Source of the DNA: Thermofilum adornatum
GTDB lineage: Archaea; Thermoproteota; Thermoprotei; Thermofilales; Thermofilaceae
Direction of reading: 5' to 3'
Length of the DNA stretch: 32,000 bases
Assembly: GCF_000446015.1 (NCBI RefSeq)
Contig: NC_022093.1
Span: 1,080,001 to 1,112,000, forward strand
Positions within the stretch are counted from its first letter, which is position 1. Each line of letters begins with the position of its first letter. This document shows, piece after piece, positions 6,771 through 30,072 of the stretch. Under the pieces are notes generated by a model. The model was not told where the DNA came from, ran no database searches, and was given only the letters and a program-made list of their open reading frames with translations. A program made the position numbers and the translations under genes.

Positions 6771-7232
6771 TCATTCCAGCTTGTAGGGTCGAAGCCGTTT
6801 TATCTCAGATAATACCTTCTCAACGAAAGCATTGACGTAGCCCCAGTTAAAGCCCCTCTCCTCTAAAACCTGCTTTACATACATCTCGGTATCCCTATAG
6901 TTCTTGAACTTCTCGTTGATCTCCCTCCACGGGATGCCCTTGAGACCATCCGCAAGCCTCTGATCAAAGGGGAGAACCCCCTTAAGCATCAAAAAAGCGA
7001 TTGACGGGTAACCGAGATACCCCTTGTACACAGAACCGTTATCATTAGAGGAAATACCTAGCCCCCCATCCCACACAACCCTATAAACCCTGCTACCATC
7101 AGAGCCAGTCACTTGGGCTTCGCGTTCACCTTTAAAAATTATCCTGCCGTCGCCAACAGCGCCCAATGCCTCCAGTACTTTTACGCGTGGTGGGACCTTC
7201 CAGGGAACCCTAGTTTCCCCTGACTTGGGCAA
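6771..7232 (-). CDS. Hypothetical protein (153 aa); start codon uncertain (TTG)
   Basis: The ORF opens at 7238 and the only start candidate near its 5' end is TTG at 7232. No family recognised. Codon usage is strongly G/T-ending, like the gene upstream of it. Confidence 0.45.
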   Translation of the reverse strand: MPKSGETRVPWKVPPRVKVLEALGAVGDGRIIFKGEREAQVTGSDGSRVYRVVWDGGLGISSNDNGSVYKGYLGYPSIAFLMLKGVLPFDQRLADGLKGIPWREINEKFKNYRDTEMYVKQVLEERGFNWGYVNAFVEKVLSEIKRLRPYKLE

Positions 7233-7291
7233 GCCAGACTACACCTATATAATGTGTTGACGTTCAAGAATATTAACCATTCTGTGGATTC

Positions 7292-8380
7292 TTATTCCGC
7301 GGGCTTCCCCAAGGGAAAGACATACAGCGGTCTCTGTTCGCCGAAAACCTCCAAAAAGTCTTCTTCGTGAAATGCGCCTATAGCCACGGTGCCCAGCCCC
7401 TCATCCACAGCATTCAGGTAGATGTTCTGACCAACAGCGCCAGCCTCAACCTCCCCTAGCAAGCCGTCCCCAAAAAGAACTATCACGGCGGCTGCCCGCC
7501 GAACAGACTCCTGCATGAGGCTGGCCCTCCAAAGCTTTTCACGGAAATCACCAGTCCTAACAAGTTCAAGCTCCATGTCTTTCGCATCGAATTCATAGAT
7601 TCCCTTATCAAGCCCCCTCACATTAAATACTGCTACGGAGCCATTTACACCATACTCCTCCCCGAACTTTAGATAGGGACGCGAACCAGCAACAATCTCC
7701 CCCATAGACCACTTCAAAACGTCCAATAGACTTTCACTGCTTATAGCTTCGCGACTATAGTTCCTTATACTCCTCCGCAAAACAACAGCAGTATCAAACA
7801 GTACCCCTTTCTCAAGAGAAAAACCCCTACAATAGCTATCCACACGTGCAACATCAACCCTAGCGGCTATGTACTGTGGCTTCCCAGGGCCAAACTCGAG
7901 CTCAACAAGCCTGACACTGCCCCACAGCCCATGACTCACAAGAGACAAGAAAAGATTCTGCAGAGCATGTCCAACCTCGTTCCTCACATACATGTAGCCC
8001 CTCTCCCCATAATACGTCACAGTCCTGCCCGGCAAAACCGAAAACAAGAAACCCTCAAAGTCCGCGTTGACGCTTGACTGGACAAGGTTGCCCGAGCAAG
8101 ACACATACTTATAGAGGCCGGTCTTCAGCGGAAAAATCCTCCCCAAAGAGGATACGTACACCTCAAGCGGGTACGTGGCACCGGCCGACGGGACAGTCCT
8201 AAATCGCCTGTCACGGCACCCCTGGACATGGAAAAGGACCCTAGACAGCCATGCCTCGTCCAGCTCGTACCTCAACGGGAGACCATTAGCTAGACACCAC
8301 AAGCACTCGCGTAGCGACGGACCCTGCCTGTTAGGAGACCCCCTCTGGCCAGACATAACAACAATACATATTGAAATCAT
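7292..8380 (-). CDS. Tandem nitroreductase-fold protein (SagB-type dehydrogenase-like N-terminal half plus nitroreductase-like C-terminal half)
   Basis: The N-terminal half has RRFRTVPSAGATYPLEVYV, the PSAG..YP.E.Y signature of SagB/ThcOx-type domains. The C-terminal half begins RRSIRNYSREAISSESLLDVLKWS (nitroreductase RRSxRxF-type motif) and ends VGQNIYLNAVDEGLGTVAIGAF. The TATA-like tatacataaatata at 8381-8394 abuts the first ATG, so the second ATG at 8356 (MSGQRG...) may be the real start. Confidence 0.7.
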   Translation of the reverse strand: MISICIVVMSGQRGSPNRQGPSLRECLWCLANGLPLRYELDEAWLSRVLFHVQGCRDRRFRTVPSAGATYPLEVYVSSLGRIFPLKTGLYKYVSCSGNLVQSSVNADFEGFLFSVLPGRTVTYYGERGYMYVRNEVGHALQNLFLSLVSHGLWGSVRLVELEFGPGKPQYIAARVDVARVDSYCRGFSLEKGVLFDTAVVLRRSIRNYSREAISSESLLDVLKWSMGEIVAGSRPYLKFGEEYGVNGSVAVFNVRGLDKGIYEFDAKDMELELVRTGDFREKLWRASLMQESVRRAAAVIVLFGDGLLGEVEAGAVGQNIYLNAVDEGLGTVAIGAFHEEDFLEVFGEQRPLYVFPLGKPAE

Positions 8381-8451
8381 TATACATAAATATACCGCTA
8401 GCCAAAAAGCCGAAACGCTAAAAACAAATCAAACCGCACCGACCCAAACAC

Positions 8452-9021
8452 GTGGACAAAACCATACTAATCGCAACAAAAAACCGGCACAAAGTCCAAG
8501 AAATGGCCCCAATACTCGAGACATACGGGTACAAGCTACAGCCAGCAGACCTCCCCAAAATAGAGATACAGTCAGACACACTCCAAGAAATAGTAGCCTA
8601 CGCCGCCCGCCACATACCAGCACTAGACAAGCCAGTAATCATAGAGGACGCCGGTCTATTCATCAAAGCCCTAAACGGCTTCCCAGGGCCATACAGCCAC
8701 TACGTCTACCAGACAATTGGATGCAAAGGCATACTACAGCTTCTCCAGCAGGTTACAGACAGGACAGCAGTCTTCCAGTCGGCAATAGCCCTAAAAACAC
8801 CCACAGGCGAAACACACATCTTCACCGGCGAAACCATGGGAAAAATAACCACAGAGCCGAGGGGCACAGGCGGCTTCGGCTTCGACCCCATATTCCAGCC
8901 ACAAGGCACACATAAAACCTACGCAGAAATGAGCCTTCAAGAAAAAAACCTCTACTCCCACAGGGCAAAAGCAACCAAGAAACTAGCAGAACACCTAGCT
9001 ACTATGGCTTCAGTATACTAG
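8452..9021 (+). CDS. Non-canonical purine NTP pyrophosphatase (RdgB/HAM1/ITPase family)
   Basis: The GTG start is the first possible start after an in-frame TAA at 8419-8421. Motifs ILIATKNRHKVQE, IIEDAGLFIKALNGFPGPYS, GFGFDPIF and SHRAKA are seen. The 3' end overlaps the convergent 9002-11386 gene by 20 nt. Confidence 0.85.
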   Translation: MDKTILIATKNRHKVQEMAPILETYGYKLQPADLPKIEIQSDTLQEIVAYAARHIPALDKPVIIEDAGLFIKALNGFPGPYSHYVYQTIGCKGILQLLQQVTDRTAVFQSAIALKTPTGETHIFTGETMGKITTEPRGTGGFGFDPIFQPQGTHKTYAEMSLQEKNLYSHRAKATKKLAEHLATMASVY

Positions 9022-11386
9022 GAGCCCACTTCTCCTGGAACATGGAAGCATAGATATACGCGTTCTGCCATACGTTGGGGATATTGCTTCCCAAATTAAG
9101 AAAACCAGAACCACTAGCGCCATAACTGAACACAACTGTCCAGTATCTTAAAAATGTGCCTGCAGACACAGATCTATAAGTATTGTATGGCCAGAAATCA
9201 GCCTCAATGGACCCTTGACGACCAGTAAGACCCCCAGATGCCGTGCTCGAGAAACTCGCATATGTACTCCCAATGCTTTGGAGCAGATTCACTGCGGCCT
9301 GGTTCAAGATGACTGCTCTCCCAGTGCCCCCATTGTTCCAGTGTGCAAGCAATATACCGGGGTTACTTCTGATCAGAACTCCTTCTGAATAAACCTGGTC
9401 GTAAGTATAGACAAATGTCTGGTTCGTGTAAGAAGAGCTTTTCGTATAAGCAAAGTAGTCTGCGAATCCCGCGCCCATCTCAGTCATAAGCCAGTAGCCG
9501 TAGTCAGATCGCATGTTTTTCCAATAGATATACGTAATTACAGGTATATACCTTGTCCCATTAACTATCTGCACAATCGCTAACGTAGCATAATACTGGT
9601 CACTAAGCGCTGTATCCCCATAGTCCCTATAGACACTGCCTACCCACTCTGTGTTAAGTACAGCGAAAATCCTAATAGGCGCCTTTATCCAAGAGTAACG
9701 CATGTATTCATAGTAAACCTGCCAAGTACCATAAGGTCTGAAACGTCCAAGGTGGCAGTAGGTTCCTGAGCAATACCTTCCAAAGGCATGAAGATTGTAG
9801 GGGCCAAACGCAGAGTCAGTAGACGGGTCTCTTAGAACAAAAGCCGCGACGCCAAAATAGTTTACGTACCCCCTTGACCGCTGGTGCTCCTGGTCAACGA
9901 ACTCCACGTCGTAGAGCGGGTGCCAGACGTCCTTGTGTGTAGAGTCCTGGATAAATTGTATCTGTGTCTGATATACTGCGGGCTCGGTGTCCAGGTCGTC
10001 GTACCACCACAGTGTGACGTATTGCTTACGTATGTTGGTGGGAAACTTTACCTGGAAGACCAGCTTTGTGTTATATTTGTCTCCCTTTACAAAGTCCATC
10101 TGGGGGTCAGACAGGCCTACAGGGTAGTCCACGGGAACACCGTGCCATACAACGGTTGTCCAGTTCTCGTACTGTATAGGCCTCTCTTTAAGTGTTGCCG
10201 TGGTTCCGTCGAGCGTGACGTTTACCCTTATCTGTTTTATGGGTATGTATGGGAAGGGTGGGAGCTTGAGGGCGGGGTCTACTGAGAGCTTTTGCCCAAG
10301 CCAGAAGAGGGAAAGGTTCGAGCTCATCTCAAGGGTGTAGACCTCGTTACTTATGTCGCTTGGTCTAGTCAACGTTGTCTTGTTTCCAGATGAGTCGTAA
10401 TAGATCAAGGTATCAGGGGTATTTCTCTGGACGGCAAAGTAGATGTAGTAGTAGGTAGACGCTTCGACCACTATTCCTCTCTCGTCACTTACCACCACCA
10501 TTATTGGTACATACTGGTCTCCCTTTAGGTCTGTAAGTACGGGGAGCGACGGCTCAAACGTTACAGAGTAGTTGCCCATGCCCGCGTAGGTTACGTCCCT
10601 TATCTTGGCCTGGAGCCACTTTCCGGTGAATCTTCCACTTGCATCCATTTGGGGATAGTATATCCTGACCCATCCCTTGGTGATTAGGCGGCCATAAGGA
10701 GTTCCAACAAGGCTTGGCGGACTTGTTGAGTAGTCAAGGGATCCGTCTTGCCTCACATTGATCATGATTGTCACGTTCTGGCCCGTCACGCTTATCGGTT
10801 TCCTGTAGACAGTCAAGGTTAGTCCCACAAGTACGTCGCTCTCCCAGTTATAGAACCCCATAGCTGTGATGTTTAGCCTGAGCTTTGCATATGCATAGCT
10901 CCCAGAGGTGGGGAGGTACCAGTAGCCCTTCATCAAGTTGTAGACTGTTCGTTGCCTGCCAAGCTCCTTCGAGAGGTCGAGCTGGAGTATCTCGTAGGAC
11001 ACTTGGACTCCATACTCGCCGTAGGCCTTGGTTATAGACTGTCTCCAGTACTCTAGATACGTCTTGGCGACCTGCCTGGCCACAGTAAAGTTGTGCCTGT
11101 TATTCATTGACATTCCGTATGAGCTAAACCTGTCGGTGAGGTCTGAAAACTCGGAATAGTTAAAGTATGCCCTAGTAGCCACAGCCAGCATTGAGGCCAA
11201 CGCCCTCTTGAAGTCAGCCGTTATGGCCCCGACAACCTCCCTGACAACTGGGCTCCTCGTCCTTAGAAACAGGCTATGCGTCTCGTATACAGTGACAAGG
11301 ACAGACATTATCATCAAGCCGATAATTAGTATAGCGGCGACAACCATCTGGGCTGAACGCCTCGCCTTGCTCCTCAAATTTCTCAC
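9002..11386 (-). CDS. Large (794 aa) exported protein with a type-IV-pilin-like N-terminus; mature domain unrecognised
   Basis: GTG start in a GTGA overlap with the upstream gene. The N-terminus is MRNLRSKARRSA|QMVVAAILIIGLMIMSVLVTVY (basic leader plus hydrophobic helix). The rest is Tyr/Trp-rich and beta-looking, with 11 N-x-S/T sequons by my count. Confidence 0.6.
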   Translation of the reverse strand: MRNLRSKARRSAQMVVAAILIIGLMIMSVLVTVYETHSLFLRTRSPVVREVVGAITADFKRALASMLAVATRAYFNYSEFSDLTDRFSSYGMSMNNRHNFTVARQVAKTYLEYWRQSITKAYGEYGVQVSYEILQLDLSKELGRQRTVYNLMKGYWYLPTSGSYAYAKLRLNITAMGFYNWESDVLVGLTLTVYRKPISVTGQNVTIMINVRQDGSLDYSTSPPSLVGTPYGRLITKGWVRIYYPQMDASGRFTGKWLQAKIRDVTYAGMGNYSVTFEPSLPVLTDLKGDQYVPIMVVVSDERGIVVEASTYYYIYFAVQRNTPDTLIYYDSSGNKTTLTRPSDISNEVYTLEMSSNLSLFWLGQKLSVDPALKLPPFPYIPIKQIRVNVTLDGTTATLKERPIQYENWTTVVWHGVPVDYPVGLSDPQMDFVKGDKYNTKLVFQVKFPTNIRKQYVTLWWYDDLDTEPAVYQTQIQFIQDSTHKDVWHPLYDVEFVDQEHQRSRGYVNYFGVAAFVLRDPSTDSAFGPYNLHAFGRYCSGTYCHLGRFRPYGTWQVYYEYMRYSWIKAPIRIFAVLNTEWVGSVYRDYGDTALSDQYYATLAIVQIVNGTRYIPVITYIYWKNMRSDYGYWLMTEMGAGFADYFAYTKSSSYTNQTFVYTYDQVYSEGVLIRSNPGILLAHWNNGGTGRAVILNQAAVNLLQSIGSTYASFSSTASGGLTGRQGSIEADFWPYNTYRSVSAGTFLRYWTVVFSYGASGSGFLNLGSNIPNVWQNAYIYASMFQEKWAPSILKP

Positions 11387-11892
11387 CCAGAAAAACCTAT
11401 AACCATCTGTATAAGCAGAGTCGTACCCCTAACACTGTCTGGATCCCCAGTACACACATATGTATATGTAACGGGCTCAGACTCGACGAGTTTAATGTTT
11501 TTCCAGTCGTAGTTCGATGCACAACCAATCCAAACGAGGTTTACGCTCTTACTAGCAAGGTCAAAGTCGACCCTGTAGATGTCGATCTTAAAGAGGAGCC
11601 CAGGCGGAAGACTGGCACTTGCCAGGAAGCCGAGGTTATAAAACGTGCATTCTCCAGTTTGCTGCATGTTTTCAGAGCCAAGGTTAGCTATTGTTTTCTC
11701 GAATACATTGTTTTCTGCCATGTTGTTGAGCAGGTCGTAGGCGAGTCGTCTTAAATCGCTTGTCTCCCTAACATAGACGCTTTTCAGGGGTCTCGTAAAC
11801 GCCATGACAAGCAGTATTATTGACACGACCATGAAAGTTGCGAGGACGGCCTCTATTACTCTTATCTGACCTTTTCTCTTTGTAAACATCAT
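11383..11892 (-). CDS. Type-IV-pilin-like protein (class III signal peptide), about 169 aa
   Basis: The track starts this ORF at a TTG (11916). An ATGATG at 11892-11887 forms an ATGA overlap with the stop of the upstream gene and is preceded by GGAGGAGGG. That start gives MMFTKRKG|QIRVIEAVLATFMVVSIILLVMAF, a KG|Q class III signal. Confidence 0.6.
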   Translation of the reverse strand: MMFTKRKGQIRVIEAVLATFMVVSIILLVMAFTRPLKSVYVRETSDLRRLAYDLLNNMAENNVFEKTIANLGSENMQQTGECTFYNLGFLASASLPPGLLFKIDIYRVDFDLASKSVNLVWIGCASNYDWKNIKLVESEPVTYTYVCTGDPDSVRGTTLLIQMVIGFSG

Positions 11893-13148
11893 GGGAAGCC
11901 TTCTACCCTCCTCCAAATAGTTAACTCGACGACGTAGGGATAGCTATATATTGTGCATACTCTTCTCAGAGTAACGCTATTAGCCGGGAGAGCAGTTTTA
12001 CCGCCGTAGGCTATATCAATGTTTGGAAGCCTGCTAATAACTATAGCTACAGGGTTCCCTCTAAACTGTGCAAATATGAAAATGTGGCTTGACAAGGGCT
12101 CAACGTACTGGATATATCCTACTAGGTACCACTGTTTCGCACTGGGCAGAACTCGGCCTGCGTTGTTACACAGGGGATCATCGTTCCTAAAGTTTCCAGA
12201 GGAGTCCCTACACCAAGTCACGGTAGTAAAATTAAGAAGGTCTTGATACTCTGGTACAGCTTGAAGCAGGTCATCCTTTACTAGCACAGCCCCAGCGTTC
12301 CTATTTCCCCTCCTGATAACAGGACTGTTAATATCCTTGTTTACAAAGACATAGTTTCCAATAATGTAGCCCTCTGCCGGGACGCCTCCCTGGGAAGTAG
12401 AGGCATAGCCAGCAACGCTTATGAAGCCCTGCCACTCGGCTCTCGCGATAAGAAAAGTATAAAACCACTTGTCTGGTCTCTGCTGTCTAAAATAGCTTGC
12501 CAGGTCGCTTGTATAATCGATCCTGCATTTTCCAACGGCATTTGTTAGACAAGTTTTTGTAAGGATTGTCTTGGCCTCCACGTCGCCCTCGTTATTGCCC
12601 GCTCCAGGCTGTACACGGACCACGACATACATCGCTGTAATGTTTGCGTTTGGGATGCCAAGTCCATAATAGTTGGTGACGAGGAAATCGTATGCAGAAA
12701 TGAAGGTGTAGCTTTGGTAATAGTAGTATCCAGCAGGCGTTATATTGATTAACAGCATCGGTCTTATTCTGAGCCTAAAGCCATAGTCCTCTAGGTTCAA
12801 GAGCTGTGCAAGCCGAGTAGTGTTTAAGAGGAGTGGATTTGGAAGAGTGCTCAGATTTGCCAGCCTCATAACCTTGTCTGGGTCAACAATGTATGGCGAA
12901 CGGGCACCGTAGAGTGCTAGTCCAAAGTCTTGTAGAGTATCTGGAGTAACCTGGATATTTGTTCCCCAGTCGACGGGATAGCCAGGGGTAAGTATAAGTT
13001 TGTCCATCACCCTTTCAGCGATTGTGTAGAGCTGTTCTTCATAAGTCGTAGCGACAGTAGATGTAGTAGCATTTACCATTCCATATGAAACTAAAATTAA
13101 AAGTACTATCAGGAGCCCAACGGCCAGATATTCTAGTGTTGCCTCCAT
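11889..13148 (-). CDS. Exported or anchored protein (419 aa) that begins directly with a pilin-like hydrophobic helix; mature domain unrecognised
   Basis: ATG start preceded by AGGTG about 9 nt upstream. The N-terminus is MEATLEYLAVGLLIVLLILVSYGMVNATTS. Six N-x-S/T sequons by my count. Confidence 0.55.
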   Translation of the reverse strand: MEATLEYLAVGLLIVLLILVSYGMVNATTSTVATTYEEQLYTIAERVMDKLILTPGYPVDWGTNIQVTPDTLQDFGLALYGARSPYIVDPDKVMRLANLSTLPNPLLLNTTRLAQLLNLEDYGFRLRIRPMLLINITPAGYYYYQSYTFISAYDFLVTNYYGLGIPNANITAMYVVVRVQPGAGNNEGDVEAKTILTKTCLTNAVGKCRIDYTSDLASYFRQQRPDKWFYTFLIARAEWQGFISVAGYASTSQGGVPAEGYIIGNYVFVNKDINSPVIRRGNRNAGAVLVKDDLLQAVPEYQDLLNFTTVTWCRDSSGNFRNDDPLCNNAGRVLPSAKQWYLVGYIQYVEPLSSHIFIFAQFRGNPVAIVISRLPNIDIAYGGKTALPANSVTLRRVCTIYSYPYVVELTIWRRVEGFP

Positions 13149-13207
13149 AACTAGCTACACCTAAATATAGTGCCGCCTCTCATAAAACCTTTTCGGTATA
13201 CGAAGAA

Positions 13208-13720
13208 CTATGGACTTATTGTGACCGAGGAGAACCCTACATATATTGAGCCGCCCATGCTAAACGCTATCACAACAGGTTTTCTCCCTGGGGGAAGAGG
13301 CATATAGAGTGTGTCAGATACAGTGAATCCTCCTATGGTAACTGTTCCTTTAACAGCGTGGACCGGATTTTGTCCAAAGTTGGGGGTAACAACAACTCGT
13401 ACTTGTTGATAGACCTGTAACTTGGCCGTAACGTTTAAGACATTGTCGCCACTCTCTCCCAATTGTATCAGATAAGGCTGTCCGCCAAGCGTGTCAGGGA
13501 GCGTAAGGTACATGTAGCTTGTAGAGCCTCCGCCAAGCGTATATACAGAAATCAGTTCAACTATTTCTCTTGCAGCACTCTCGGCTACTTCTCCAAGCAT
13601 GATGTTCTGGTTCTGCATCTGGTAGATGAACCCCATAAAGCTGAAGGTCGCTAAGATAATGATTGTTGCCTGGAGGATGCTGATAGTTCCAATGATGTGT
13701 GAAATTACTGGGTTAACCAT
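13208..13720 (-). CDS. Small (170 aa) protein with a pilin/FlaF-FlaG-style N-terminal hydrophobic helix
   Basis: The N-terminus is MVNPVISHIIGTISILQATIIILATFSFMGFIY and the remainder looks beta-rich. It has its own TATA-like box at 13748-13755. Confidence 0.5.
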   Translation of the reverse strand: MVNPVISHIIGTISILQATIIILATFSFMGFIYQMQNQNIMLGEVAESAAREIVELISVYTLGGGSTSYMYLTLPDTLGGQPYLIQLGESGDNVLNVTAKLQVYQQVRVVVTPNFGQNPVHAVKGTVTIGGFTVSDTLYMPLPPGRKPVVIAFSMGGSIYVGFSSVTISP

Positions 13721-13747
13721 TCTTAGTGATTTGTAGGCTTATTTACC

Positions 13748-13755
13748 TATAAAAA
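13748..13755 (-). promoter_or_regulatory. Internal TATA-like box (TTTTTATA on the minus strand) within the surface-protein locus
   Basis: Lies 28-35 nt upstream of the ATG at 13720, in the 83-nt gap between 13804-14607 and 13208-13720. Confidence 0.3.
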
Positions 13756-13803
13756 CTTTGCAGAGTATTTATCCATTGTTAACAGGGATGGCACTTGGTG
13801 TCT

Positions 13804-14607
13804 TTAAGAGCTACTAATACTGATTCTAGCTATCTTTACTATCAGTACTGATCCATCCGCGTCTGGCCCGGTTAAGTATATCGTCTGGGTTTTCGGGCCA
13901 ACCGTTATGCTAAGGGTTACACTACTAGTATAATAAAAGACGTACTCGTCTACCGTTATCCCGGTATTCCTTAAAACTATGGGGATAGTACCAGATCCCC
14001 CAAGGGTGCCCTTTGTTAATTCAACAATATGCAAGATGAAGTAATTGTACCGCTTCTTGGTGCTACCCTCTGTAACATTTATCTGCGAGCTGTAGAAAGC
14101 TCTGAGTCTTGGAACTAGGAATGCGCATGCTCTCCCAGTAAAGTTTTCGTAGACAATGACTATTGGCTCGCCGCTCTTGGCTACTACTTTGGATAGCTCC
14201 GTTGCGAGGTCGCCTGTCTCTGGGTAAAGTAGTTTCGGCGTCGTTGTTACAAGTGGTCCACCGCATACTTGTAGCACGAGAGGCGTCGACTCGTAAACTT
14301 TAACGTTGTTTGCATAAACAGTTATAGATTGGCTTGAAGGCAGAAGAGAGATCCCAGTGGAGGTCAGGCTGAAACGGGCATACCTAGATCCCCCCTCGCC
14401 AAAGGCCACTTGTTCCAGTGCTGTGGCAACGTAGGTTAGCTGTTCCTTTGCATATTCATACTCCATTGTTTGCCTGTTGAGGTCGATTAGTGAGGTAGAA
14501 TAGAAGAGTGCAATTGTCACTATTGTTAGCATTATGCTTGTCAGGATAACTGTCGCTATTACTGGTGAAATGCCTCTCTTCATGGTTTGCTTATATGCTC
14601 TTGTCAT
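13804..14607 (-). CDS. Archaeal type IV pilin-like protein (Pilin_N/DUF1628-type class III signal peptide), 267 aa
   Basis: The N-terminus is MTRAYKQTMKRG|ISPVIATVILTSIMLTIVTIALFY, the canonical archaeal prepilin/archaellin-type N-terminal motif. The start forms an ATGA overlap with the upstream gene; an alternative ATG at 14583 gives MKRG|ISPV. Confidence 0.75.
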   Translation of the reverse strand: MTRAYKQTMKRGISPVIATVILTSIMLTIVTIALFYSTSLIDLNRQTMEYEYAKEQLTYVATALEQVAFGEGGSRYARFSLTSTGISLLPSSQSITVYANNVKVYESTPLVLQVCGGPLVTTTPKLLYPETGDLATELSKVVAKSGEPIVIVYENFTGRACAFLVPRLRAFYSSQINVTEGSTKKRYNYFILHIVELTKGTLGGSGTIPIVLRNTGITVDEYVFYYTSSVTLSITVGPKTQTIYLTGPDADGSVLIVKIARISISSS

Positions 14608-16145
14608 TCTGTTTCCGCTCTTCTCCGGCGGATAATAACTATCAGCACAAGGGCTAGAGCCACTACGATAAGTATTATTAGTATCGGCAATATTGGCAGG
14701 GAGGGTGTAGGCGATGCTGTTCCGCCCCCGGCCCCCTGTACCATGTAGCTTGTTGACGCGGTTGCCTGGCCTGCCGGTGTGTTATAGGTTACTGTTATCT
14801 TGTAGTTGCCTGGGTTGAGGCTTAATGGCAATGTCGCTACACCTTCGGAGGTAGCGGCGCCCTCAATCGTCACGGGTGTCTTTGTAAAGGCTGTGTCGGG
14901 CAAAGTTGTGGCTAGTACTGTTGCTCCGCTTTGGTCAGTAACCCTTACCTCTACGTTTGAGCTTGTGTAGAGAGGCGAGACACGTATCACGAGGGTGTTT
15001 GCCGTCACCTGAAGGTTTGCTCTTGGCTGGACTGTTGTCGACTTTACCTGTAGCTTCACGATGGATGGGGAATACTTGTTAGAGTCGATCTTTACTGTAA
15101 CAGTGCCCTCGCCCTGTGGGAAGGAGGCATAAACAGTAGGAGCAAAGTCTCCAGAGTATACAGGCTGGTTTTCAAATGTGATGCTTACTGTTGCCTGCTC
15201 GTCCTTGTCGAGCGGGGGGTTAAGTGTGAAGCTCACGGGGACATATGTGTTTGCGACAACTGTGCTTGGAAGGTTTACCTTGGTTTCCCTTACTGGTTTT
15301 ATTACTAGGTTCAGCGGGAAGCTGTAGGAATAAGTGTAGCCCCAGGGCGTGACGGCTGTAACTTTGACTGTTACGCTGTATTGGCTCCTAGCGAATGGGC
15401 CAAGCTTGCTCACGTTCATCAGGAATTCTAGGGTTCGCTTTTCTTCTACATTCATCTTGCCAGTTGTCAATAGGTAGCATTGGACTGGTGCACCGCTTAT
15501 TTCTGCTTGGGCGTTCTCTATAAATCCTTCCCCCTTCACCCATATGTCCACGTAGAACCTGACAATGTAGAATGGGTCGTAGTCCGTCTTTAGGTACGGC
15601 TCTACGTATACATATGTCCTAGGGGCAATCACGCGAACAGGTATACTTGTAAAGGCAGAATAGAAGCCCATGCTCGGTGGTGAGCCGTCATTCATCTCGA
15701 AATAGTATGATAGATCAATCTTGATTGTAGTGTCCTTTATGTCTCCTGGAACCATCTGTGACGCGAAGAACCTCGGCGTAAGCTTTACTGTTAGGCTCAC
15801 TGGTCTCCCGGGAGAAAGCGAGTAAGGCGAGTCGGGAACAACTTCAAGCGTGCTTGTATCTCCAATGGTGATTCTGAGACCCTTCAAGTAGAACACCTTG
15901 AGGCCGGCGCCCTCAACCTCTGTTATAAGTATCGTTACGGGCACCTGATACTCGTTGGTCGCCACGAGTTCTGTTGGCAAGGTAACTGTTACCTTTATCC
16001 ATACGGGTCCAATGTTTACGAGTGATTCTTTTGTTACGGGCTGTGCTGTAGCAGGGATAAAATAGGCTGAGAAGCTGAATACAAGGAGCAAAGTTAACAG
16101 CAGTGCTGGGAGGCGTCTGTTTCTGATCCCGAAGTTATTTGCCAT
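14604..16145 (-). CDS. Sec-exported, C-terminally membrane-anchored beta-rich surface protein (513 aa)
   Basis: N-terminal signal peptide MANNFGIRNRRLPALLLTLLLVFSFSAYFIPATA|QP. The body is long, Val/Thr-rich and looks Ig/CARDB-like. The C-terminus is GAGGGTASPTPSLPILPILIILIVVALALVLIVIIRRRRAETE (linker, TM helix, basic tail). Confidence 0.6.
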   Translation of the reverse strand: MANNFGIRNRRLPALLLTLLLVFSFSAYFIPATAQPVTKESLVNIGPVWIKVTVTLPTELVATNEYQVPVTILITEVEGAGLKVFYLKGLRITIGDTSTLEVVPDSPYSLSPGRPVSLTVKLTPRFFASQMVPGDIKDTTIKIDLSYYFEMNDGSPPSMGFYSAFTSIPVRVIAPRTYVYVEPYLKTDYDPFYIVRFYVDIWVKGEGFIENAQAEISGAPVQCYLLTTGKMNVEEKRTLEFLMNVSKLGPFARSQYSVTVKVTAVTPWGYTYSYSFPLNLVIKPVRETKVNLPSTVVANTYVPVSFTLNPPLDKDEQATVSITFENQPVYSGDFAPTVYASFPQGEGTVTVKIDSNKYSPSIVKLQVKSTTVQPRANLQVTANTLVIRVSPLYTSSNVEVRVTDQSGATVLATTLPDTAFTKTPVTIEGAATSEGVATLPLSLNPGNYKITVTYNTPAGQATASTSYMVQGAGGGTASPTPSLPILPILIILIVVALALVLIVIIRRRRAETE

Positions 16146-16229: not shown

Positions 16230-17201
16230 CTATTCGAGTCCGTACCGCTTAAAGTTGATTTTTCCCATTTTTTCTTCAACAAGCTTCTTGTATTTTTCGT
16301 CCAGGTAGGCCCTATAAAGGCACGTTTTACATATAGGGTTCGTAGAGGGCTCTCCGCATACCCTGCAATATGTTGGCTGTTTATAGGGGGCCTTGATTTT
16401 TTTCCTGGCAAGCTCTTTGCTTGCAAGTAATCGGTACTTGAATCCTGGGTCTTCGTCCTCGACCTCGTTTACCCAGTGCCTTACCGGGTGTCTCATCGCA
16501 TAGACTATGTAGGGGCACTCTACGAAGGGAGTATAGATGTTCATGATCAAGGTGTAGGTCAATACCTCTTTCTCAGGTATAAGGTAGAGAGGCTTAATCC
16601 TAGGTACAAGCGTGGCACTAGTCTCATCGGAAATTATCCCTTCCCTAAGAATGCCGTCGATGTGGCTCTTCAAGGCATTCATAACAAAGACCTGCGTCTC
16701 GTCATCTAGATTGTGGCCAGTAGCCAGCTTCGAGGCATCATGTTCACGTGCAACAGCATTCATAACGTAGCGCCTAAAAACACCGCACACACTGCATGGC
16801 TTAATCACGAGTCCCTTCTCTTTTAGTTTCTTCACTGCTTCATCCAAAGTGAAGCCGAAGTAGTCCTTGAAGGAGCCTACATATATCTCTACCCCTAGCT
16901 TTGCCGCTAGGTTCCTAAGAGCCTCTAGCTTGTACTCCCTATAACCAGCTATACCCTCGTCAACCGCCACGCCGAAGACTTTGATGCCGAGCCTTCCGGC
17001 AAATTTCGAGAGGAGATACAGCGTGGTAAGGCTGTCCTTGCCTCCGCTCACCGCGACTGCTACTCTGTCCCCCTCCTCCACTAGCCGAAAGTGTACGATC
17101 GTATCGTAAACTCTCCTCTCAAAGTACTCAACAAAGTGTTCAGCGCAAAGATAGTCTCCTAGATAAGATACGTATACAGAAGCCTTCTTCCCGCACACCA
17201 T
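16230..17201 (-). CDS. ttuA: PP-loop ATPase, TtuA/NcsA-type tRNA 2-thiolation protein
   Basis: PP-loop SGGKDS; central CSVCG; C-terminal zinc finger CRVCGEPSTNPICKTC; GHNLDDE. The N-terminal zinc finger is only partial from the ATG (MVCGKK...LCAEHF). A TGC Cys codon lies immediately upstream in frame (see finding). Confidence 0.8.
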   Translation of the reverse strand: MVCGKKASVYVSYLGDYLCAEHFVEYFERRVYDTIVHFRLVEEGDRVAVAVSGGKDSLTTLYLLSKFAGRLGIKVFGVAVDEGIAGYREYKLEALRNLAAKLGVEIYVGSFKDYFGFTLDEAVKKLKEKGLVIKPCSVCGVFRRYVMNAVAREHDASKLATGHNLDDETQVFVMNALKSHIDGILREGIISDETSATLVPRIKPLYLIPEKEVLTYTLIMNIYTPFVECPYIVYAMRHPVRHWVNEVEDEDPGFKYRLLASKELARKKIKAPYKQPTYCRVCGEPSTNPICKTCLYRAYLDEKYKKLVEEKMGKINFKRYGLE

Positions 17202-17218: not shown

Positions 17219-17440
17219 TTATCCACCAGACACTACTGAGTGCAGTTTTATTCTCGAACCAGGTCTAACAAGTTCCTCCTCCGTCGTTACCTCGCCATCT
17301 ACACTCACAACTACCTCGCTTACCCGTAGACCAAGCATCTTGACAAGGTCCGCTATCCTCGTGTTTGCTGGAACTTTTACCTCCCTGACCTCTCTGCCGA
17401 AAATATCTACAAGCACTGACACAAGTTCACCATTACTCAT
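17219..17440 (-). CDS. ttuB: ThiS/MoaD-fold ubiquitin-like sulfur carrier (TtuB/SAMP-like) ending in Gly-Gly
   Basis: 73 aa, ending ...RIKLHSVVSGG-stop. The internal VSVDGEVTTEEELVRPGSRI matches the ThiS/MoaD beta-grasp pattern. It sits 17 nt upstream of ttuA on the same strand. Confidence 0.7.
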   Translation of the reverse strand: MSNGELVSVLVDIFGREVREVKVPANTRIADLVKMLGLRVSEVVVSVDGEVTTEEELVRPGSRIKLHSVVSGG

Positions 17441-24515: not shown

Positions 24516-24553
24516 AGAAACATTTAACACATAACAAGTTTTTATTGGTAACC

Positions 24554-26182
24554 ATGAAAATTCGAGAAATTGCTGAAAAGCTTTTCCTAGAGCTGGGACA
24601 ACAAGACATTGTAGCTGGAAGCAGAGAAGAGAGAGAATCGCTCGAAAAAATAAGGGGAATATTTGAGGAGCTACAGCTCCCGGTAGAGACTTACAGTTTT
24701 CAATGTTCGAGTTGGCGAGAAAAGCGTGTTTCGCTACATCTTCATGACCATGAATTAAAAGCTGTAGCGATGCCTAACTCTCCGTCTGGAAGTATCGAAG
24801 CAAAGGCCGTATACATTGGCGAGCGGATTCTTAGAGAAGAATTCCGGGGACTTGATCTCTCTGGAAAGATAGCAGTAGTCAAGATGTATAGAAAAATAGA
24901 TGAAATCTCGTGGCAATACCTGAGAGCAGTTGAGAGAGGTGCAGAAGCAGTTATATTTGTTGACCCCTACCCAGACAGAAGAAGGAGAATAGTCATAGTT
25001 CCAAGCGTTGACTATACGTTCTCTGTTGGGAGCCCTCCACCAGTCCCGGTAGCATCTGTTTCCCTGGAGGATGGTCTAAAGCTAGTCCAAGCCGCAAACA
25101 GGGGCGAAAAAATCATCCTAGAAATAGAGACAGATGCAGACAACTCTGCAACGACGGGGGTAGTAGTGGCTGGAGACCTTGAGGGCCCTATCTTTACGGC
25201 ACACATTGATAAGTGGCTCAGCGGCTTTACAGACAATGTTCTCGGCCTAGGCATTGTATTGGCACTTGCAGAAAAATATAGGGAAAATGCAGGACTCATA
25301 GTATTCGGGTCTGAGGAATACGGGGCACCAGGCTACTCGCCGTGGTACTGGATATGGGGTTCACGGTCTTTCGTTTCTAGACTCGACGAAAGAGATAGGT
25401 TAAGCGAGCTAGGTCTAATAATAAATTTTGACACGCTGGGCGGACAAAACATATCCCTGTCAGCTTCTGGAGTAGATCTTCTCTCGGGTCTCAGAAAAAT
25501 GTTGGGCGACTCATACCGCTACACGCCAGACCAAGTAATCTTTGACAGTTTTAGTTTCACTATGCATGGCCATCCTGCCCTAACAATCCATACCTTCGAG
25601 GACACTCTCCCTATATATCACACTGATAAGGATGTCCCAGGCAACGTGGACTGGCAAAAAATAGAGGAGGCTGTACAACTTGCCGAAATAATAGCTACCC
25701 ACTACATGAAAAACAAATGGAAGATGCTTGACTACACCGTCCTCATAGACAAAGTCAAAGAAAAAGCCATGAAACTTAAAGACATAAAAGAAGCCTCAGA
25801 ACTCATAGATTTCCTAGAAAAGATAAAAATAGAAAACGAGAAGCAGGCACACTATATAAGAAGGGAACTAACAAGGCCCATCTATGCTGGGACGTATGGA
25901 GAAGTATTCGAAGACCCTGTTGTGTCTTATCCTTACCTCCTTGAAGCTGTAGAAGACCTACTGTCCCTAACACAATCTCAAATGGATAATACTAAAGGTG
26001 AATCCAAGCTAAAAGCCCTAGTCAAAACAGTTCCAGGCTGGGAAACAAAGATCTATGATTTAAGGATTCTAGTCGATAAGAATGCCTGGGAAGAATTAAG
26101 ATATCTTACAAGACAACTGGCAACGGTATACCTTGCTGAAACTAGAAAGGTCTTTGAAAAGGTTGCGAGTGTTGCTCTTTAA
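24554..26182 (+). CDS. M28-family metallopeptidase with PA (protease-associated) domain and a C-terminal helical extension
   Basis: PA-like GKIAVVKMYR...AEAVIFVD. M28 metal-ligand blocks FTAHIDKW, GFTDNVLG, FGSEEYG and IYHTDKD. I prefer the ATG at 24554 over the track's TTG at 24545. Confidence 0.55.
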   Translation: MKIREIAEKLFLELGQQDIVAGSREERESLEKIRGIFEELQLPVETYSFQCSSWREKRVSLHLHDHELKAVAMPNSPSGSIEAKAVYIGERILREEFRGLDLSGKIAVVKMYRKIDEISWQYLRAVERGAEAVIFVDPYPDRRRRIVIVPSVDYTFSVGSPPPVPVASVSLEDGLKLVQAANRGEKIILEIETDADNSATTGVVVAGDLEGPIFTAHIDKWLSGFTDNVLGLGIVLALAEKYRENAGLIVFGSEEYGAPGYSPWYWIWGSRSFVSRLDERDRLSELGLIINFDTLGGQNISLSASGVDLLSGLRKMLGDSYRYTPDQVIFDSFSFTMHGHPALTIHTFEDTLPIYHTDKDVPGNVDWQKIEEAVQLAEIIATHYMKNKWKMLDYTVLIDKVKEKAMKLKDIKEASELIDFLEKIKIENEKQAHYIRRELTRPIYAGTYGEVFEDPVVSYPYLLEAVEDLLSLTQSQMDNTKGESKLKALVKTVPGWETKIYDLRILVDKNAWEELRYLTRQLATVYLAETRKVFEKVASVAL

Positions 26183-26265: not shown

Positions 26266-27915
26266 ATGACCAACAGTAAAGTCTTTCTGTTAGCCTTCAT
26301 AGCCCTTCTAGCCTTCACAGCATCCCTGGTCTTCGCTGCCCCCTCATTGAGGCAGTGGACAGGCACAGCCCCAAACATGCCTCTACAAGTAGTTGTAAGC
26401 AATGGCGAGCTCATAGTTACCGACCTGTCAAACGACCAGTACAAATACTACAGCCCTCAATACAACTGGCCAATACCTAGCGACCTCGACATTCTAGAAG
26501 CAAGGGTTTACAGCGATGGACAAAACATCTATGTCAGATACAAGTTCCAAACACTAAAGAGTAAGTATTCGCCATACGTGATGCTGGTTATGGATTTCAC
26601 GCCCGACAACGATATGGACGGCTTTGACAACTGGCTCCCAGACTGGTCAGACACAAAGTTGCCCTGGAAATGGGACGCTATTATCGGTGTCAACCTGGGG
26701 AAGAAGGATAGCCAGTCATTTGTTTTCTACAGGAGTTGGAACCCCCAGTTTGTTGGCAGTCTAGCTGTTGACCAGGACAACGCTGTAATTGAGGCCATGG
26801 TTCCACTTTCAGCTCTTCCCGACTTCCCAAGAAATGGCAAAATCAGGATGGTCATAGTTGTGTTCGCAAATGACTATGGCGGCATATGGGATCCAGGCAA
26901 GAAGAAGAACTATGACCCAGAGATAGGCATCGTCATCAACGAGGAAACATTCTACGCATGTAACGTGTATGATATTGCTGGGCAGGCACCCACCAACATG
27001 GAGGTCTATGGAAACTGGAAGGACGGGGTTCAAGAAGTAGCAGTATACTACACAGTATCAACTTCAAATGGCATTTTCACCTCTGTGGCGGACTATGGGA
27101 GAAAAGTTTCATACGAAAGATCCCTCGCCAAAATGAAGCTAATCTATCCGCCTCTACCGGGCCAGCTTAGAAACTGGGCAGGAACACCCCCACTTACATC
27201 TCCTGGTAGCACAGTTGTTTCAAACGAGGCAATAATAACAGACCCAGCAAACGACCAGTACAAGTATTACAGACCAGACTGGAACTGGCCTATTACCAGC
27301 GACCTTGATGTCCTCGAGACAAGACTCTACAGTGATGGACAATACCTCTACATACGTGTAAAGCTTTCTACACTGAAAAACAAGTATTCACCCTACATAA
27401 TGATACCAATAGACTACACCCCAGACAACCCCTCTGATGGCGTCAGCGAGTGGCTACCAGACTGGTCTGACACAAATCTCCCCTGGAAATGGGACGTGAT
27501 AATAGGTATAAATTTTGGTAAAAGCGAAACCCAGCCCTTCGTAATCGACTCTTCATGGAATCCCAAGTTCACAGGTCAACTGGCCGTCAACCAGACACAA
27601 GGCGTAATCGAGGCCAAGATACCTCTAAGTAGCCTGCCAGGATTCCCGACAAATGGCAAAATAAAATATACTGTCATCATTTTCGCCAATAGTTTTGGAG
27701 GCGTATGGGATCCGGGTCAGAACAACGCTGTAGATCCCTCCACAGGTAAAACAATTTCCGAAAATGACTATGCAAGCGATGTTTACGACATAGCCGGCCA
27801 GGCCCCAACATCTGCTGAAGTCTACGGTGGATGGGGCAATGGAAGCCAGACAGTAAAAACAGCCTTCACAGCCCAGTTGACAAATGGCCTCTTTGTAGGA
27901 ATCACGTCAGCTTAA
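26266..27915 (+). CDS. Secreted protein made of two tandem copies of an about 273-aa domain; function unknown
   Basis: Signal peptide MTNSKVFLLAFIALLAFTASLVFA|AP. Residues about 28-276 and 301-549 align with each other along their whole length (NDQYKYY, WNWPI.SDLD.LE.R.YSDGQ, KYSPY, TPDN, WLPDWSDT.LPWKWD.IIG.N.GK, SWNP.F.G.LAV.Q, VIEA..PLS.LP.FP.NGKI, FAN..GG.WDPG, VYDIAGQAPT..EVYG). Confidence 0.7.
   Translation: MTNSKVFLLAFIALLAFTASLVFAAPSLRQWTGTAPNMPLQVVVSNGELIVTDLSNDQYKYYSPQYNWPIPSDLDILEARVYSDGQNIYVRYKFQTLKSKYSPYVMLVMDFTPDNDMDGFDNWLPDWSDTKLPWKWDAIIGVNLGKKDSQSFVFYRSWNPQFVGSLAVDQDNAVIEAMVPLSALPDFPRNGKIRMVIVVFANDYGGIWDPGKKKNYDPEIGIVINEETFYACNVYDIAGQAPTNMEVYGNWKDGVQEVAVYYTVSTSNGIFTSVADYGRKVSYERSLAKMKLIYPPLPGQLRNWAGTPPLTSPGSTVVSNEAIITDPANDQYKYYRPDWNWPITSDLDVLETRLYSDGQYLYIRVKLSTLKNKYSPYIMIPIDYTPDNPSDGVSEWLPDWSDTNLPWKWDVIIGINFGKSETQPFVIDSSWNPKFTGQLAVNQTQGVIEAKIPLSSLPGFPTNGKIKYTVIIFANSFGGVWDPGQNNAVDPSTGKTISENDYASDVYDIAGQAPTSAEVYGGWGNGSQTVKTAFTAQLTNGLFVGITSA
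26347..27093 (+). repeat. Intragenic tandem duplication, copy 1
   Basis: LRQWTGTAP begins at 26347. The register offset to copy 2 is exactly 819 nt (273 codons), for example gaccagtacaaatactac at about 26434 versus gaccagtacaagtattac at about 27253. Confidence 0.8.
27166..27912 (+). repeat. Intragenic tandem duplication, copy 2
   Basis: LRNWAGTPP begins at 27166. Similarity to copy 1 is visible at both the nucleotide and protein level; by eye roughly half or more of the residues are identical. Confidence 0.8.
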
Positions 27916-28941: not shown

Positions 28942-30072
28942 TTATCCTATGACAGCAAGTTCCTTTACTGTCTTGCCCTCCTCAAACCTAGACAAGACAA
29001 GGTTGCCAGCCTCCTGGCTCCTCGGTCTACCCGAAGTTATCCAGCTCGCCACCTCCTCTGCTACTACGGGGGCCATCATAAATCCGTGGCCACTAAAACC
29101 TGTAGCAATGTAGAGGTTTTCGATAGGCGTAACTGGACCGATTATTGGATGATGATCAGGAGTCATCTCGTAATACCCGGGCCAGTACCTGAGGATGTTC
29201 ACGTTTGGGAGCCACGGAAGCCACTTGCTCCAAACCGAGACAACCTTCTCGAGGAAGGCTAGCTTAACACTCAGCTCGCCGAACGGCTTCTCTTCTACGT
29301 CCACACCCATCAATACATTACCGTGGAAAGTTTGCACCGCGTATGCCCCAGAAGCCACGTCTATTATCAACGGGTCAAAAAGCCTGCCAAAGTCTTCGGT
29401 TAACGCTGCATGGTGTGGCACCGGCGTGAGGGGTATCTTTATCCCGTTTCTCTCGAGCAGATATACAGAGTAGGCCCCCGCAGTGACGGCAACGTTTCTA
29501 GCAGGTATCTTTTCACCATCTATCAGCACGCCCTTGGCAGCCCCGTTTTCTATATCTATGCGTGTAACCTCTTTTCCAACCAAAAACTCTACTCCAAGAC
29601 TCTTTGCGGCCAAGAACTGTTTATACAACGAGTCGAAGGGGCTGGCTTTGCCCGCCAAAGGGTCAAAGAGAGCCCCAACCATCTTGGAAGTATCCACGTA
29701 AGGAGCAACTTCTTTGACGAAGTCCTCGCCCACGAGCCTTGTATCTAGGCCGAACATATGGTGGATACGCATATACCCCTTAATCTTCTCTAAGTCTTCT
29801 TCCCTGTGGGTAAGCCACAGGTACCCGCTCCTTGAGTACTTCACGCCAAGCTTTTCCTTGAGCTCTCCCCACAGCTCGATGCTCCTCTTCATCAAGACTA
29901 TGTGCTCTCTACTAGTAAAGCTGGCCCTGATGCCGCCGGCACAGCGGAAAGTCGAGCCGCTGCCGAGATAGTTCCTTTCAACAAGTAGGATCTTGCCAAA
30001 GCCCTGCTCTGCCAGCTTAAAAGCCAGGCTAACACCTATAATGCCGCCTCCAACGATTATCAAATCATACAT
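28942..30072 (-). CDS. FAD-dependent oxidoreductase (DAO family), beta subunit of a proline dehydrogenase / sarcosine-oxidase-like complex
   Basis: N-terminal Rossmann motif MYDLIIVGGGIIGVSLAFKLAEQG, and a C-terminal GFSGHGFMMAP typical of SoxB / dye-linked PDH beta. It is the last gene of a four-gene overlapping operon. Confidence 0.75.
   Translation of the reverse strand: MYDLIIVGGGIIGVSLAFKLAEQGFGKILLVERNYLGSGSTFRCAGGIRASFTSREHIVLMKRSIELWGELKEKLGVKYSRSGYLWLTHREEDLEKIKGYMRIHHMFGLDTRLVGEDFVKEVAPYVDTSKMVGALFDPLAGKASPFDSLYKQFLAAKSLGVEFLVGKEVTRIDIENGAAKGVLIDGEKIPARNVAVTAGAYSVYLLERNGIKIPLTPVPHHAALTEDFGRLFDPLIIDVASGAYAVQTFHGNVLMGVDVEEKPFGELSVKLAFLEKVVSVWSKWLPWLPNVNILRYWPGYYEMTPDHHPIIGPVTPIENLYIATGFSGHGFMMAPVVAEEVASWITSGRPRSQEAGNLVLSRFEEGKTVKELAVIG

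Follow-up and report, generated by a model that had tools for sequence, protein, structure and literature searches.

A conserved cassette of five pilin-like proteins in Thermofilum adornatum as a candidate accessory module of a type IV pilus assembled in trans

The DNA considered here, 32,000 nucleotides (nt) of Thermofilum adornatum (assembly GCF_000446015.1, contig NC_022093.1, positions 1,080,001 to 1,112,000), is referred to as the window, by which we mean the whole stretch. On its minus strand, six co-directional genes, here called g1 to g6 in the order of reading, extend from 16145 down to 9002 (Table 1). They had been described before from the letters alone, and all six open reading frames (ORFs) lie where that sequence-only reading had placed them. 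It took them for six pilin-like proteins, a set resembling minor pilins with one giant pilin-headed subunit, for which the machinery would have to act in trans. The locus raises the question of which system pilin-like proteins serve when nothing that could assemble them is encoded nearby. We propose that g2 to g6 are probably an accessory minor-pilin-like module of a Thermoproteota type IV pilus that resembles those of subclade 4A, and that this module is assembled in trans. Systems of this kind are already known from computational censuses, and the present one is not a new kind. New here are the link to an ATPase and a TadC protein through gene adjacency, the five-gene unit, its reach into Nitrososphaeria and Conexivisphaerales, two leaderless members, and a PilA-type candidate for the major pilin.

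Conservation of the cassette and linkage to assembly machinery

With an alignment of g6, species-representative genomes were scanned, individual homolog contexts were collected, and every locus was mapped by tblastn; the counts below refer to the 14 species-level loci with enough flanking sequence, the window included. In these loci the order g2-g3-g4-g5-g6 is collinear from Thermofilaceae to Nitrososphaeria, with the one exception of L012, where g4 is inverted and lies upstream. Since each of the five genes has collinear orthologs, 23 to 70% identical, in more than 12 other genomes, g2 to g6 are real genes, far beyond what chance would give. Cassette identities go down to 23 to 37% in the most distant Thermofilaceae. 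In the Nitrososphaeria locus L027 the order is TadC-299-172-395-166-716 amino acids (aa), and the family profiles match almost full-length with E values of 9e-22 to 6.5e-67 (g3, 9e-22; g4, 6.5e-67; g5, 2e-28). The block is thus conserved as a unit, as the sequence-only reading had expected, albeit of five genes and not six. Exact copies of g2 and g4 were seen on short metagenomic contigs only, look-ups of the exact sequences of the window g6 and of the T. adornatum ATPase gave no record, and g6 corresponds to AGT35569.1 (N186_06150) in T. adornatum 1910b, the window protein being 99% identical to a T. adornatum protein.

In nine of the 14 loci the cassette lies beside genes for a T2SSF/TadC protein and a T2SSE ATPase (L004, equal to L005 and L021, and L007, L009, L010, L012, L015, L016, L020 and L027). 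TadC is followed immediately by g2 in L004, L012, L015, L016 and L027, and in the last of these the ATPase is encoded about 9 kb from TadC. Treating the Nitrososphaeria ATPase context (L026) as cassette-free was wrong, the cassette being about 9 kb off, beside TadC. The ATPases and TadC proteins of the Thermoprotei loci are 47 to 75% identical among themselves, and the Nitrososphaeria pair is 36 to 55% identical to them.

The remaining five loci lack such machinery within about 7 to 10 kb. They are the window, Thermofilum pendens (L025), Infirmifilum lucidum (L006), the metagenome-assembled genome (MAG) SKYB99 (L011) and MAG 356-284 (L018); in the first three the cassette sits between TtuA and Ham1, and in L018 Ham1 lies downstream. 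For the window, the absence of a pilus ATPase, platform protein and peptidase had been noted from the sequence, and Pfam scans agree, with no T2SSE, T2SSF or prepilin peptidase among its remaining ORFs of 100 aa or more, those that overlap annotated genes in antisense excluded. Those ORFs match housekeeping families, for example an ABC transporter, Ham1, TtuA with SAMP2, HMG-CoA reductase, an Lhr helicase and oxidoreductases.

Orthologs of the machinery are nevertheless encoded elsewhere in Thermofilum and Infirmifilum genomes. The cassette-adjacent ATPase of L009 has full-length orthologs, 64 to 69% identical, in T. pendens (ABL77848.1), I. lucidum, Infirmifilum sp., the SKYB99 MAG and T. adornatum (AGT35113.1, N186_03755), and in the SKYB99 MAG the ATPase and the cassette are on one 519-kb contig. 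Relative to the L009 pair, the T. pendens and I. lucidum proteins are 70 to 74% (TadC) and 65 to 67% (ATPase) identical, and the window's cassette proteins are 52 to 62% identical to those of L009. From these identities we take machinery and cassette to be one orthologous system, which a rearrangement in the Thermofilum/Infirmifilum lineage has split. The divergent TadC/ATPase pair of I. lucidum has stayed together, at about 280 kb from the cassette; in T. pendens five genes lie between the two, and the distance to the cassette is about 468 kb; in T. adornatum, judged from accession spacing, the N186_03755 ATPase is about 456 genes away. Orphan machinery of the sort that had been predicted could accordingly be located for the ATPase in all three species and for TadC in T. 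pendens and I. lucidum. On these comparisons, the absence of machinery in cis is best read as a rearrangement specific to Thermofilum and Infirmifilum and not as a property of the system.

The linked loci also point to a candidate for the filament subunit. A PilA-type gene of about 150 aa is found in or near eight complete or partial loci and in the Nitrososphaeria locus L027. Of the nine species-level loci linked to ATPase and TadC it accompanies at least eight, and the ninth, L016, ends inside the ATPase gene. The protein has the N-terminal motif K[GA]/ISPVIATVIIVAVAIAIAIAVAFW (the slash, here and below, marks the predicted cleavage site) and a conserved C-terminal GQxIExKxHTxSGxEYP, and it is related to solved subunits of archaeal type IV pilus filaments (8fk7, E = 7e-5; more weakly 8tib, 8q30, 8gi2, 6nav and 5kyh). 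The likeness between g2 and this pilin in hhalign is confined to a 41-column region of signal and helix. Judged by these sequence relationships, the PilA-type protein is a better candidate for the major pilin than g2. Neither the window nor the flanking sequences retrieved for Thermofilum and Infirmifilum contain a PilA-type gene.

Several further features of the machinery loci deserve mention. The T2SSE domain of several ATPases of the clade, about 1140 to 1177 aa long, is interrupted by an intein (Pfam Intein_splicing, in some together with a LAGLIDADG homing endonuclease), for example at L007:15690-19202 (plus strand). Divergent from the pilus ATPase are genes for a small GTPase (Arf/Roc/GPN-loop ATP_bind_1) and a Roadblock/LC7 protein, with small proteins that have no assigned family (L004:503-3153 and L007:4255-4710, both minus strand); the pairing of GTPase and Roadblock recalls regulators of the MglA/MglB type, known from type IV pili of bacteria, and a GPN-loop-like gene is also present near the L007 locus. 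In the Nitrososphaeria context (L026:1613-9938) the stretch between TadC and the ATPase holds a cluster of glycosyltransferase genes and two more genes for pilins, one of 172 aa and a Thr-rich one of 183 aa. The detached ATPase of T. pendens and I. lucidum is followed by a protein of about 370 aa without Pfam match and a DUF711 protein (L022:10108-12265; L024:10004-12156), a pair not seen beside the cassette-adjacent ATPases of other loci.

Signals, families and predicted structures of the encoded proteins

The class III motif, that is, a basic leader, Gly or Ala at position -1 and a hydrophobic stretch, is present in g2, g5 and g6 and absent from g3 and g4, which are leaderless, and from g1, which has a Sec signal. 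Likewise, a FlaFind-style scan of all six frames of the window flagged, among real genes, g2, g5 and g6 alone. The N-termini quoted in the sequence-only reading, with class III signals on these three and pilin-like helices opening g3 and g4, are correct and are conserved in the orthologs. A conserved Glu close to the N-terminus is found in g4 and g5 and not in g2, g3 or g6.

In g2 the signal is MKRG/ISPVIATV, with the ortholog consensus [KR]G/ISPV(I/V)ATV, and the gene is the first after TadC in complete loci. Against TIGR02537, the archaellin/type IV pilin N-terminal model, g2 scores 18.7 bits with a cutoff of 20; scanned member by member, its family matches DUF7289 in 11 of 43 and Pilin_N (PF07790) in 6 of 43 proteins, all below threshold (best PF07790 E = 0.014). 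The AlphaFold2 model, from 43 homologs, has a pLDDT of 91.2 and consists of a 55-residue helix (residues 15 to 69) and an all-beta domain (74 to 265), a pilin "lollipop" for which Foldseek found no significant match in the PDB. For g5 the site is KRKG/QIRVIE, within an invariant G/Q-x-R-x-x-E that puts the Glu at mature position +6 (14 aligned orthologs). Its length in Table 1 is counted from the ATG chosen in the sequence-only reading, the longest ORF beginning at TTG 11916. DUF7288 matches g5 with E = 0.0069 and is matched, below threshold, by 3 of 14 family members. In the SKYB99 MAG (L011:8818-9990, plus strand) the g5 ortholog is 390 aa long as against about 169, through a C-terminal extension or fusion.

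The two leaderless proteins are no less conserved at their N-termini. All 13 aligned g3 orthologs begin M-P-S-P-V-x-S-H-x-x-G-T, which looks like the N-terminus of a processed pilin preceded by Met alone; DUF7266 is matched, below threshold, by 6 of the 13 family members. g4 starts directly at M1 with an invariant E6 and Y7 (14 aligned orthologs), Glu6 being at the same distance from the N-terminus as the Glu of mature g5. It contains 5 Cys and 6 N-glycosylation sequons, and the window protein has no Pfam match.

The signal of g6, RRSA/QMVVAA in the window, follows RR[GS][GA]/Q across orthologs, and the protein carries 11 N-glycosylation sequons. Its AlphaFold2 model (36 homologs; pLDDT 88.4, pTM 0.84) has a helix at residues 5 to 43, more helices up to about 121 and then serial beta-sandwich domains. 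The Foldseek matches in the PDB are at the level of domains only, namely, beta-sandwich or supersandwich modules of GH38 mannosidase, LacZ and PL26 lyase, with TM scores of at most 0.34 and 7 to 10% identity. The superfamily (252 representatives) extends into Nitrososphaeria and Conexivisphaerales and shares a conserved N-terminal module of about 300 residues, the sole part common to distant members; insertions make the size variable, with 950 to 1133 aa in L018, L007 and L004. Sequons are about 35-fold denser in g4 and g6 (1.4 per 100 aa) than in the window's cytoplasmic proteins (0.04), an enrichment that fits surface exposure.

The sequence-only reading recognised none of the mature domains, and profile searches indeed gave only matches below cutoff, with none to TIGR02537 or PF07790 for g3 to g6. 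The DUF7289, DUF7266 and DUF7288 matches fall mainly in the N-terminal 100 or so residues (best E, 0.0013 to 0.0069). These haloarchaeal families are matched repeatedly, g2, g3 and g5 each finding its own DUF, although always below the curated cutoffs. The pattern suggests an old, position-specific correspondence of accessory pilins. A literature search on DUF7289, DUF7288, DUF7266 and DUF7287 found no papers. The g2 and g6 family profiles have no sequence relatives among solved structures, and profile-profile comparisons of g3 with g5, g2 with g6 and g4 with g6 gave no relationship; an origin of the five cassette genes by duplication from one ancestor is therefore unsupported at the sequence level.

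Of the six pilin-like proteins of the sequence-only reading, g2 to g6 keep that description and g1 does not. g1 has a Sec-type signal peptide, a beta-rich Ig-like ectodomain and a C-terminal transmembrane helix followed by an RRRR tail; its N- and C-terminal features are kept in five orthologs, and Pfam yields weak Ig-like matches only (FlgD_ig, E = 0.0011). Homologs are limited to the window (with the near-identical contigs L001 to L003), L025, L009, L010 and L011. Because g1 is missing from 9 of the 14 cassette loci, it can be ruled out as a core gene; by its predicted topology and distribution it is a type I surface protein and a lineage-restricted add-on. After the cassette of the Nitrososphaeria locus (L027:12190-13425, plus strand) lies a gene for a 411-aa protein with bacterial Ig-like and CarboxypepD_reg matches, which possibly plays the role of g1.

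Layout of the locus and its neighbors

Table 1. Genes, putative promoter boxes and neighboring ORFs of the window
Feature	Coordinates	Strand	Description
g1	14604-16145	minus	513 aa; predicted surface protein with Sec signal and C-terminal anchor
g2	13804-14607	minus	267 aa; pilin-like, class III signal
g3	13208-13720	minus	170 aa; leaderless, pilin-like
g4	11889-13148	minus	419 aa; leaderless, pilin-like
g5	11383-11892	minus	169 aa from ATG; pilin-like, class III signal
g6	9002-11386	minus	794 aa, GTG start; class III signal, candidate adhesin
A/T-rich TATA-like box AAAATTAAATATT	16178-16166	minus	centre about 27 nt ahead of the ATG of g1; putative promoter for g1-g2
Box TTTTTATA	13755-13748	minus	centre about 31 nt ahead of the ATG of g3; putative internal promoter
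Ham1/ITPase gene	8452-9021	plus	convergent with g6
TtuA gene	16230-17201	minus	tRNA 2-thiolation
SAMP2/ThiS-like gene	17219-17440	minus	small modifier
M28/PA-domain peptidase gene	24545-26182		
549-aa ORF	26266-27915	plus	clear Sec signal peptide (...LVFA/AP)
246-aa ORF	8175-8915	plus	antisense, probably spurious

The junctions between the genes are as had been described, with ATGA overlaps at 14607-14604 (g1/g2) and 11892-11889 (g4/g5) and a GTGA overlap at 11386-11383 (g5/g6), all read in the sequence; gaps of 83 nt and 59 nt separate g2 from g3 and g3 from g4. A/T-rich boxes are likewise present where TATA-like elements had been proposed, before the first and the third gene. Spacings of about 27 and 31 nt between box and ATG suit leaderless or near-leaderless crenarchaeal mRNAs. 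The gap between g2 and g3 is a mere 5 nt or so in other genomes, so the putative g3 promoter, if real, would be local to the Thermofilum lineage of the window. Scans for tRNA genes and Rfam families found no match in the window.

At its 3' end g6 overlaps the Ham1/ITPase gene by 20 nt (9002-9021), and in T. pendens the overlap is similar (14 nt). On the other side, the SAMP2/ThiS-like gene lies directly upstream of TtuA; this pair adjoins the cassette in T. pendens and I. lucidum as well, looks ordinary and marks the point of cassette insertion in the lineage. The 549-aa secreted ORF, which has no Pfam match and is unannotated, adjoins the peptidase gene and is unrelated to the cassette. The 246-aa ORF runs antisense over the nitroreductase and Ham1 genes and has a very biased low-complexity translation. 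Its region is one of strong strand skew (GC skew about -0.23 to -0.31 at 7001-9000; AT skew 0.41 at 8001-9000), and the right end of the window (30001-32000) has a similar GC skew.

Relation to known systems and proposed function

To the sequence-only reading it must be added that the locus had already been catalogued. Section 14 of the census by Makarova, Koonin & Albers 2016 (PMC4858521) lists Thermofilum pilin loci without ATPase or TadC and tentatively links them to the present ATPase clade, with Thermofilum sp. 1910b (= T. adornatum) and T. pendens as its Thermofilum genomes. Its tree has the two Thermofilum ATPases, GI 530780318 and 119719356, as a pair that forms the sister group of the 4A ATPases of Desulfurococcales, with a support of 0.992; the text calls the pair a Thermofilum-specific clade, and our use of the 4A label refers to the tree position only (PMC4858521). 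GI 530780318 leads to N186_03755, the ortholog of the cassette-adjacent ATPases, and g6, from accession order, to arCOG14668. The GI numbers of the two 1910b entries differ by 456, as do AGT35113.1 and AGT35569.1, and because both offsets agree the census, on this accession-order argument, would have seen the present locus and ATPase.

The census assigns one member each of arCOG08836, arCOG05475 and arCOG10502 to each Thermofilum genome, and it labels arCOG08836 both "major pilin" of 4A and "FlaG/FlaF/PilA family" (PMC4858521). The g2 family is probably arCOG08836, to judge from size, position and phyletic pattern. The Desulfurococcus 4A loci that the census describes contain the ATPase and TadC and then secreted or pilin components of 254/257/878/367/136/430 aa (PMC4858521). 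They resemble the cassette in having one or two pilins of about 255 aa, a surface protein of about 880 aa and three further secreted components, and differ from it in number and order (267/170/419/169/794 aa in the cassette). Accessory genes downstream of the platform gene are a feature of subsystem 4A (Sivabalasarma & Albers 2026, bioRxiv 10.64898/2026.04.22.720090, which does not mention Thermofilum), one shared by the cassette loci L004, L012, L015, L016 and L027. Other 4A traits given in these sources are pilins of arCOG11238/arCOG06117 and an adhesin with remote homology to the PilY of bacteria (PMC4858521; bioRxiv 10.64898/2026.04.22.720090). For g6, no likeness to PilY1 was found in Pfam or among the 50 Foldseek PDB matches listed. 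Equating the cassette with the arCOG05475 locus of Caldivirga, as the census gives it (462/698/532/256/185 aa), finds no support, since sizes and order do not correspond. In comparison with the census, the link to the ATPase, tentative there, is one of adjacency in nine related loci here, and g6, Thermofilum-specific there, belongs to a family that extends into Nitrososphaeria and Conexivisphaerales. A literature search on pili of T. adornatum or Infirmifilum found nothing relevant.

As the sequence-only reading had supposed, the cassette proteins stand outside the characterised systems, none falling into Ups, Aap, archaellum or bindosome families in Pfam/NCBIfam and family scans. With the UpsA model NF046073, whose cutoff is 130 bits, g2 reaches 11.9 bits, and the match covers no more than the N-terminal helix. 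The Aap pilus of Sulfolobus acidocaldarius is placed by the census in subclade 4A, like the Desulfurococcales sister clade of the present ATPase (PMC4858521). Like the present system, it uses small PilA-family pilins, the genes of which lie either beside those of the ATPase and TadC or away from them. The Aap locus comprises AapA, AapB, AapX, AapE and AapF; to our knowledge, and unlike the present system, it includes neither a five-gene accessory cassette nor a large protein with class III signal. No homologs of g2 to g6 with a Sulfolobales source name were returned, most matches carrying no source name.

The closest parallel in logic is found in bacteria, where the minor pilins together with PilY1, and the GspH-I-J-K set of the type II secretion system (T2SS), likewise combine four to five pilin-like proteins with one very large subunit in a coupled operon; they are of low abundance and are thought to prime assembly and cap the fibre. 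As in the cassette, some bacterial minor pilins have a Glu near the mature N-terminus and others lack it. The differences are that two cassette members are leaderless, that peptidase and ATPase belong to archaeal families, and that PilY1 has neither the class III signal nor the pilin-like helix of g6. No family of bacterial minor pilins, PilY1 or GspH-K was matched by g2 to g6 in Pfam or NCBIfam.

With the adjacency in nine related loci and the orthologs, 65 to 74% identical, where the machinery is detached, the idea of a minor-pilin-like set with a giant pilin-headed subunit, served in trans, has gained ground. We envisage that a PibD-type prepilin peptidase encoded elsewhere would cut g2, g5 and g6 after Gly or Ala, and that g3 and g4, made without a leader and with N-termini that already resemble those of processed pilins, would enter without cleavage. 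All five would be anchored by the N-terminal hydrophobic helix, with glycosylated beta-rich domains outside, and the TadC-family platform and T2SSE-family ATPase (N186_03755) would assemble them with a small PilA-type major pilin encoded elsewhere. The conserved gene order and coupled translation suggest a complex of fixed stoichiometry, the most likely specific role of which would be to prime filament assembly and end up at the tip. There it might display g6 as an adhesive or receptor-binding head, in the manner of bacterial minor pilins with PilY1 or GspH-K in the T2SS. g1 would stand apart as a surface protein anchored in the membrane and, in some lineages, expressed together with g2.

Several points weigh against this proposal. 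No Pfam or NCBIfam model exceeds its curated cutoff for any of the six proteins, and the Foldseek PDB matches of g2 and g6 include no PilY1, GspK or minor pilin. Lacking a peptidase site, g3 and g4 may remain in the membrane and not enter the filament. Of the parts required, the ATPase alone has been located directly in T. adornatum, and PibD, TadC and a PilA-type pilin have not. Finally, by the label "major pilin" that the census gives to arCOG08836, g2 would belong to the filament proper and not be an accessory protein.

This last point leads to the alternative that the cassette builds a filament of its own, with g2 as major and g3 to g6 as minor subunits and the PilA-type pilin belonging to another filament or being interchangeable. 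The class III signal of g2 is the most canonical of the set, its gene directly follows TadC in complete loci, and in the Desulfurococcus 4A loci of the census two genes of arCOG08836, each for about 255 aa, labelled major pilin, occupy that position; the census also makes the case that several sets of pilins may depend on one ATPase/TadC pair (PMC4858521). We nonetheless consider it unlikely, given that a PilA-type gene related to solved filament subunits accompanies eight of the nine machinery-linked loci, that g2 occurs in one copy, carries a large head of 200 aa and has no relatives of solved structure, and that its equation with arCOG08836 is drawn from size, position and phyletic pattern.

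Slightly less likely still, in our view, is that the five proteins stay out of the filament and form a membrane-anchored base complex spanning the pseudo-periplasm, as a stator, S-layer gate or anchor, comparable to FlaF/FlaG. FlaF and FlaG of the archaellum are leaderless, with a hydrophobic pilin-like N-terminus. They combine it with a beta-sandwich and have no prepilin-peptidase site, and g3 and g4, leaderless with a pilin-like hydrophobic N-terminus in every aligned ortholog, share both the hydrophobic start and the lack of a site. One of the 43 g2 homologs weakly matches FlaF_Ig-like (PF22201, E = 0.066), and the second census name of arCOG08836, as quoted above, points the same way. However, neither the g3 family nor the window g4 matches FlaF/FlaG families, and Thermofilum lacks the archaellum ATPase. 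The strictly conserved peptidase sites of g2, g5 and g6 would be pointless for permanent membrane anchoring, the Glu at +6 of g4 and g5 is, by analogy with bacterial E5, the type of residue that may serve helix-helix packing in filaments, and the variable C-terminal domains of g6, with their large lineage-specific insertions, are typical of an exposed adhesin. An improbable alternative, finally, takes the system for a bindosome or a T2SS-like pseudopilus that would serve nutrient capture, with g6 displayed or secreted as a carbohydrate-binding or -processing protein. It draws on the fact that the sole fold matches of g6 are the mannosidase, LacZ and lyase modules and on the proposal in a 2026 preprint that class III signal proteins functionalise archaeal type IV filament (TFF) machines for substrate scavenging, but those matches stop at the level of domains with no catalytic domain aligned, no solute-binding-protein family is found in g2 to g6 (Pfam, NCBIfam), and a filament-type PilA pilin accompanies the system.

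Beyond the accessory module of a 4A-like pilus that we favor, one may tentatively go further and regard the cassette as what in archaea takes the place of the bacterial minor pilins with PilY1 in priming and at the tip, that is, an ancient collinear module in which g3 and g4 are independent of the peptidase and g6 is a pilin helix fused to an adhesin head that is glycosylated and varies between lineages. This reading is possible but clearly more speculative. If true, crenarchaeal type IV pili would have a first defined complex for initiation, and a new rule would be added, that of pilin-like subunits which do not depend on the peptidase. What is known of how archaeal type IV pili start to assemble, what their tips are made of and which ligands they bind comes largely from a few model systems. 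The tentative link of 2016 between the Thermofilum loci and the ATPase can now be placed on gene adjacency, and a large protein that had seemed specific to Thermofilum is part of a much wider family. The cassette may thus offer a widely conserved candidate for an initiation and adhesin complex in Thermoproteota, including relatives of the ammonia-oxidising archaea.

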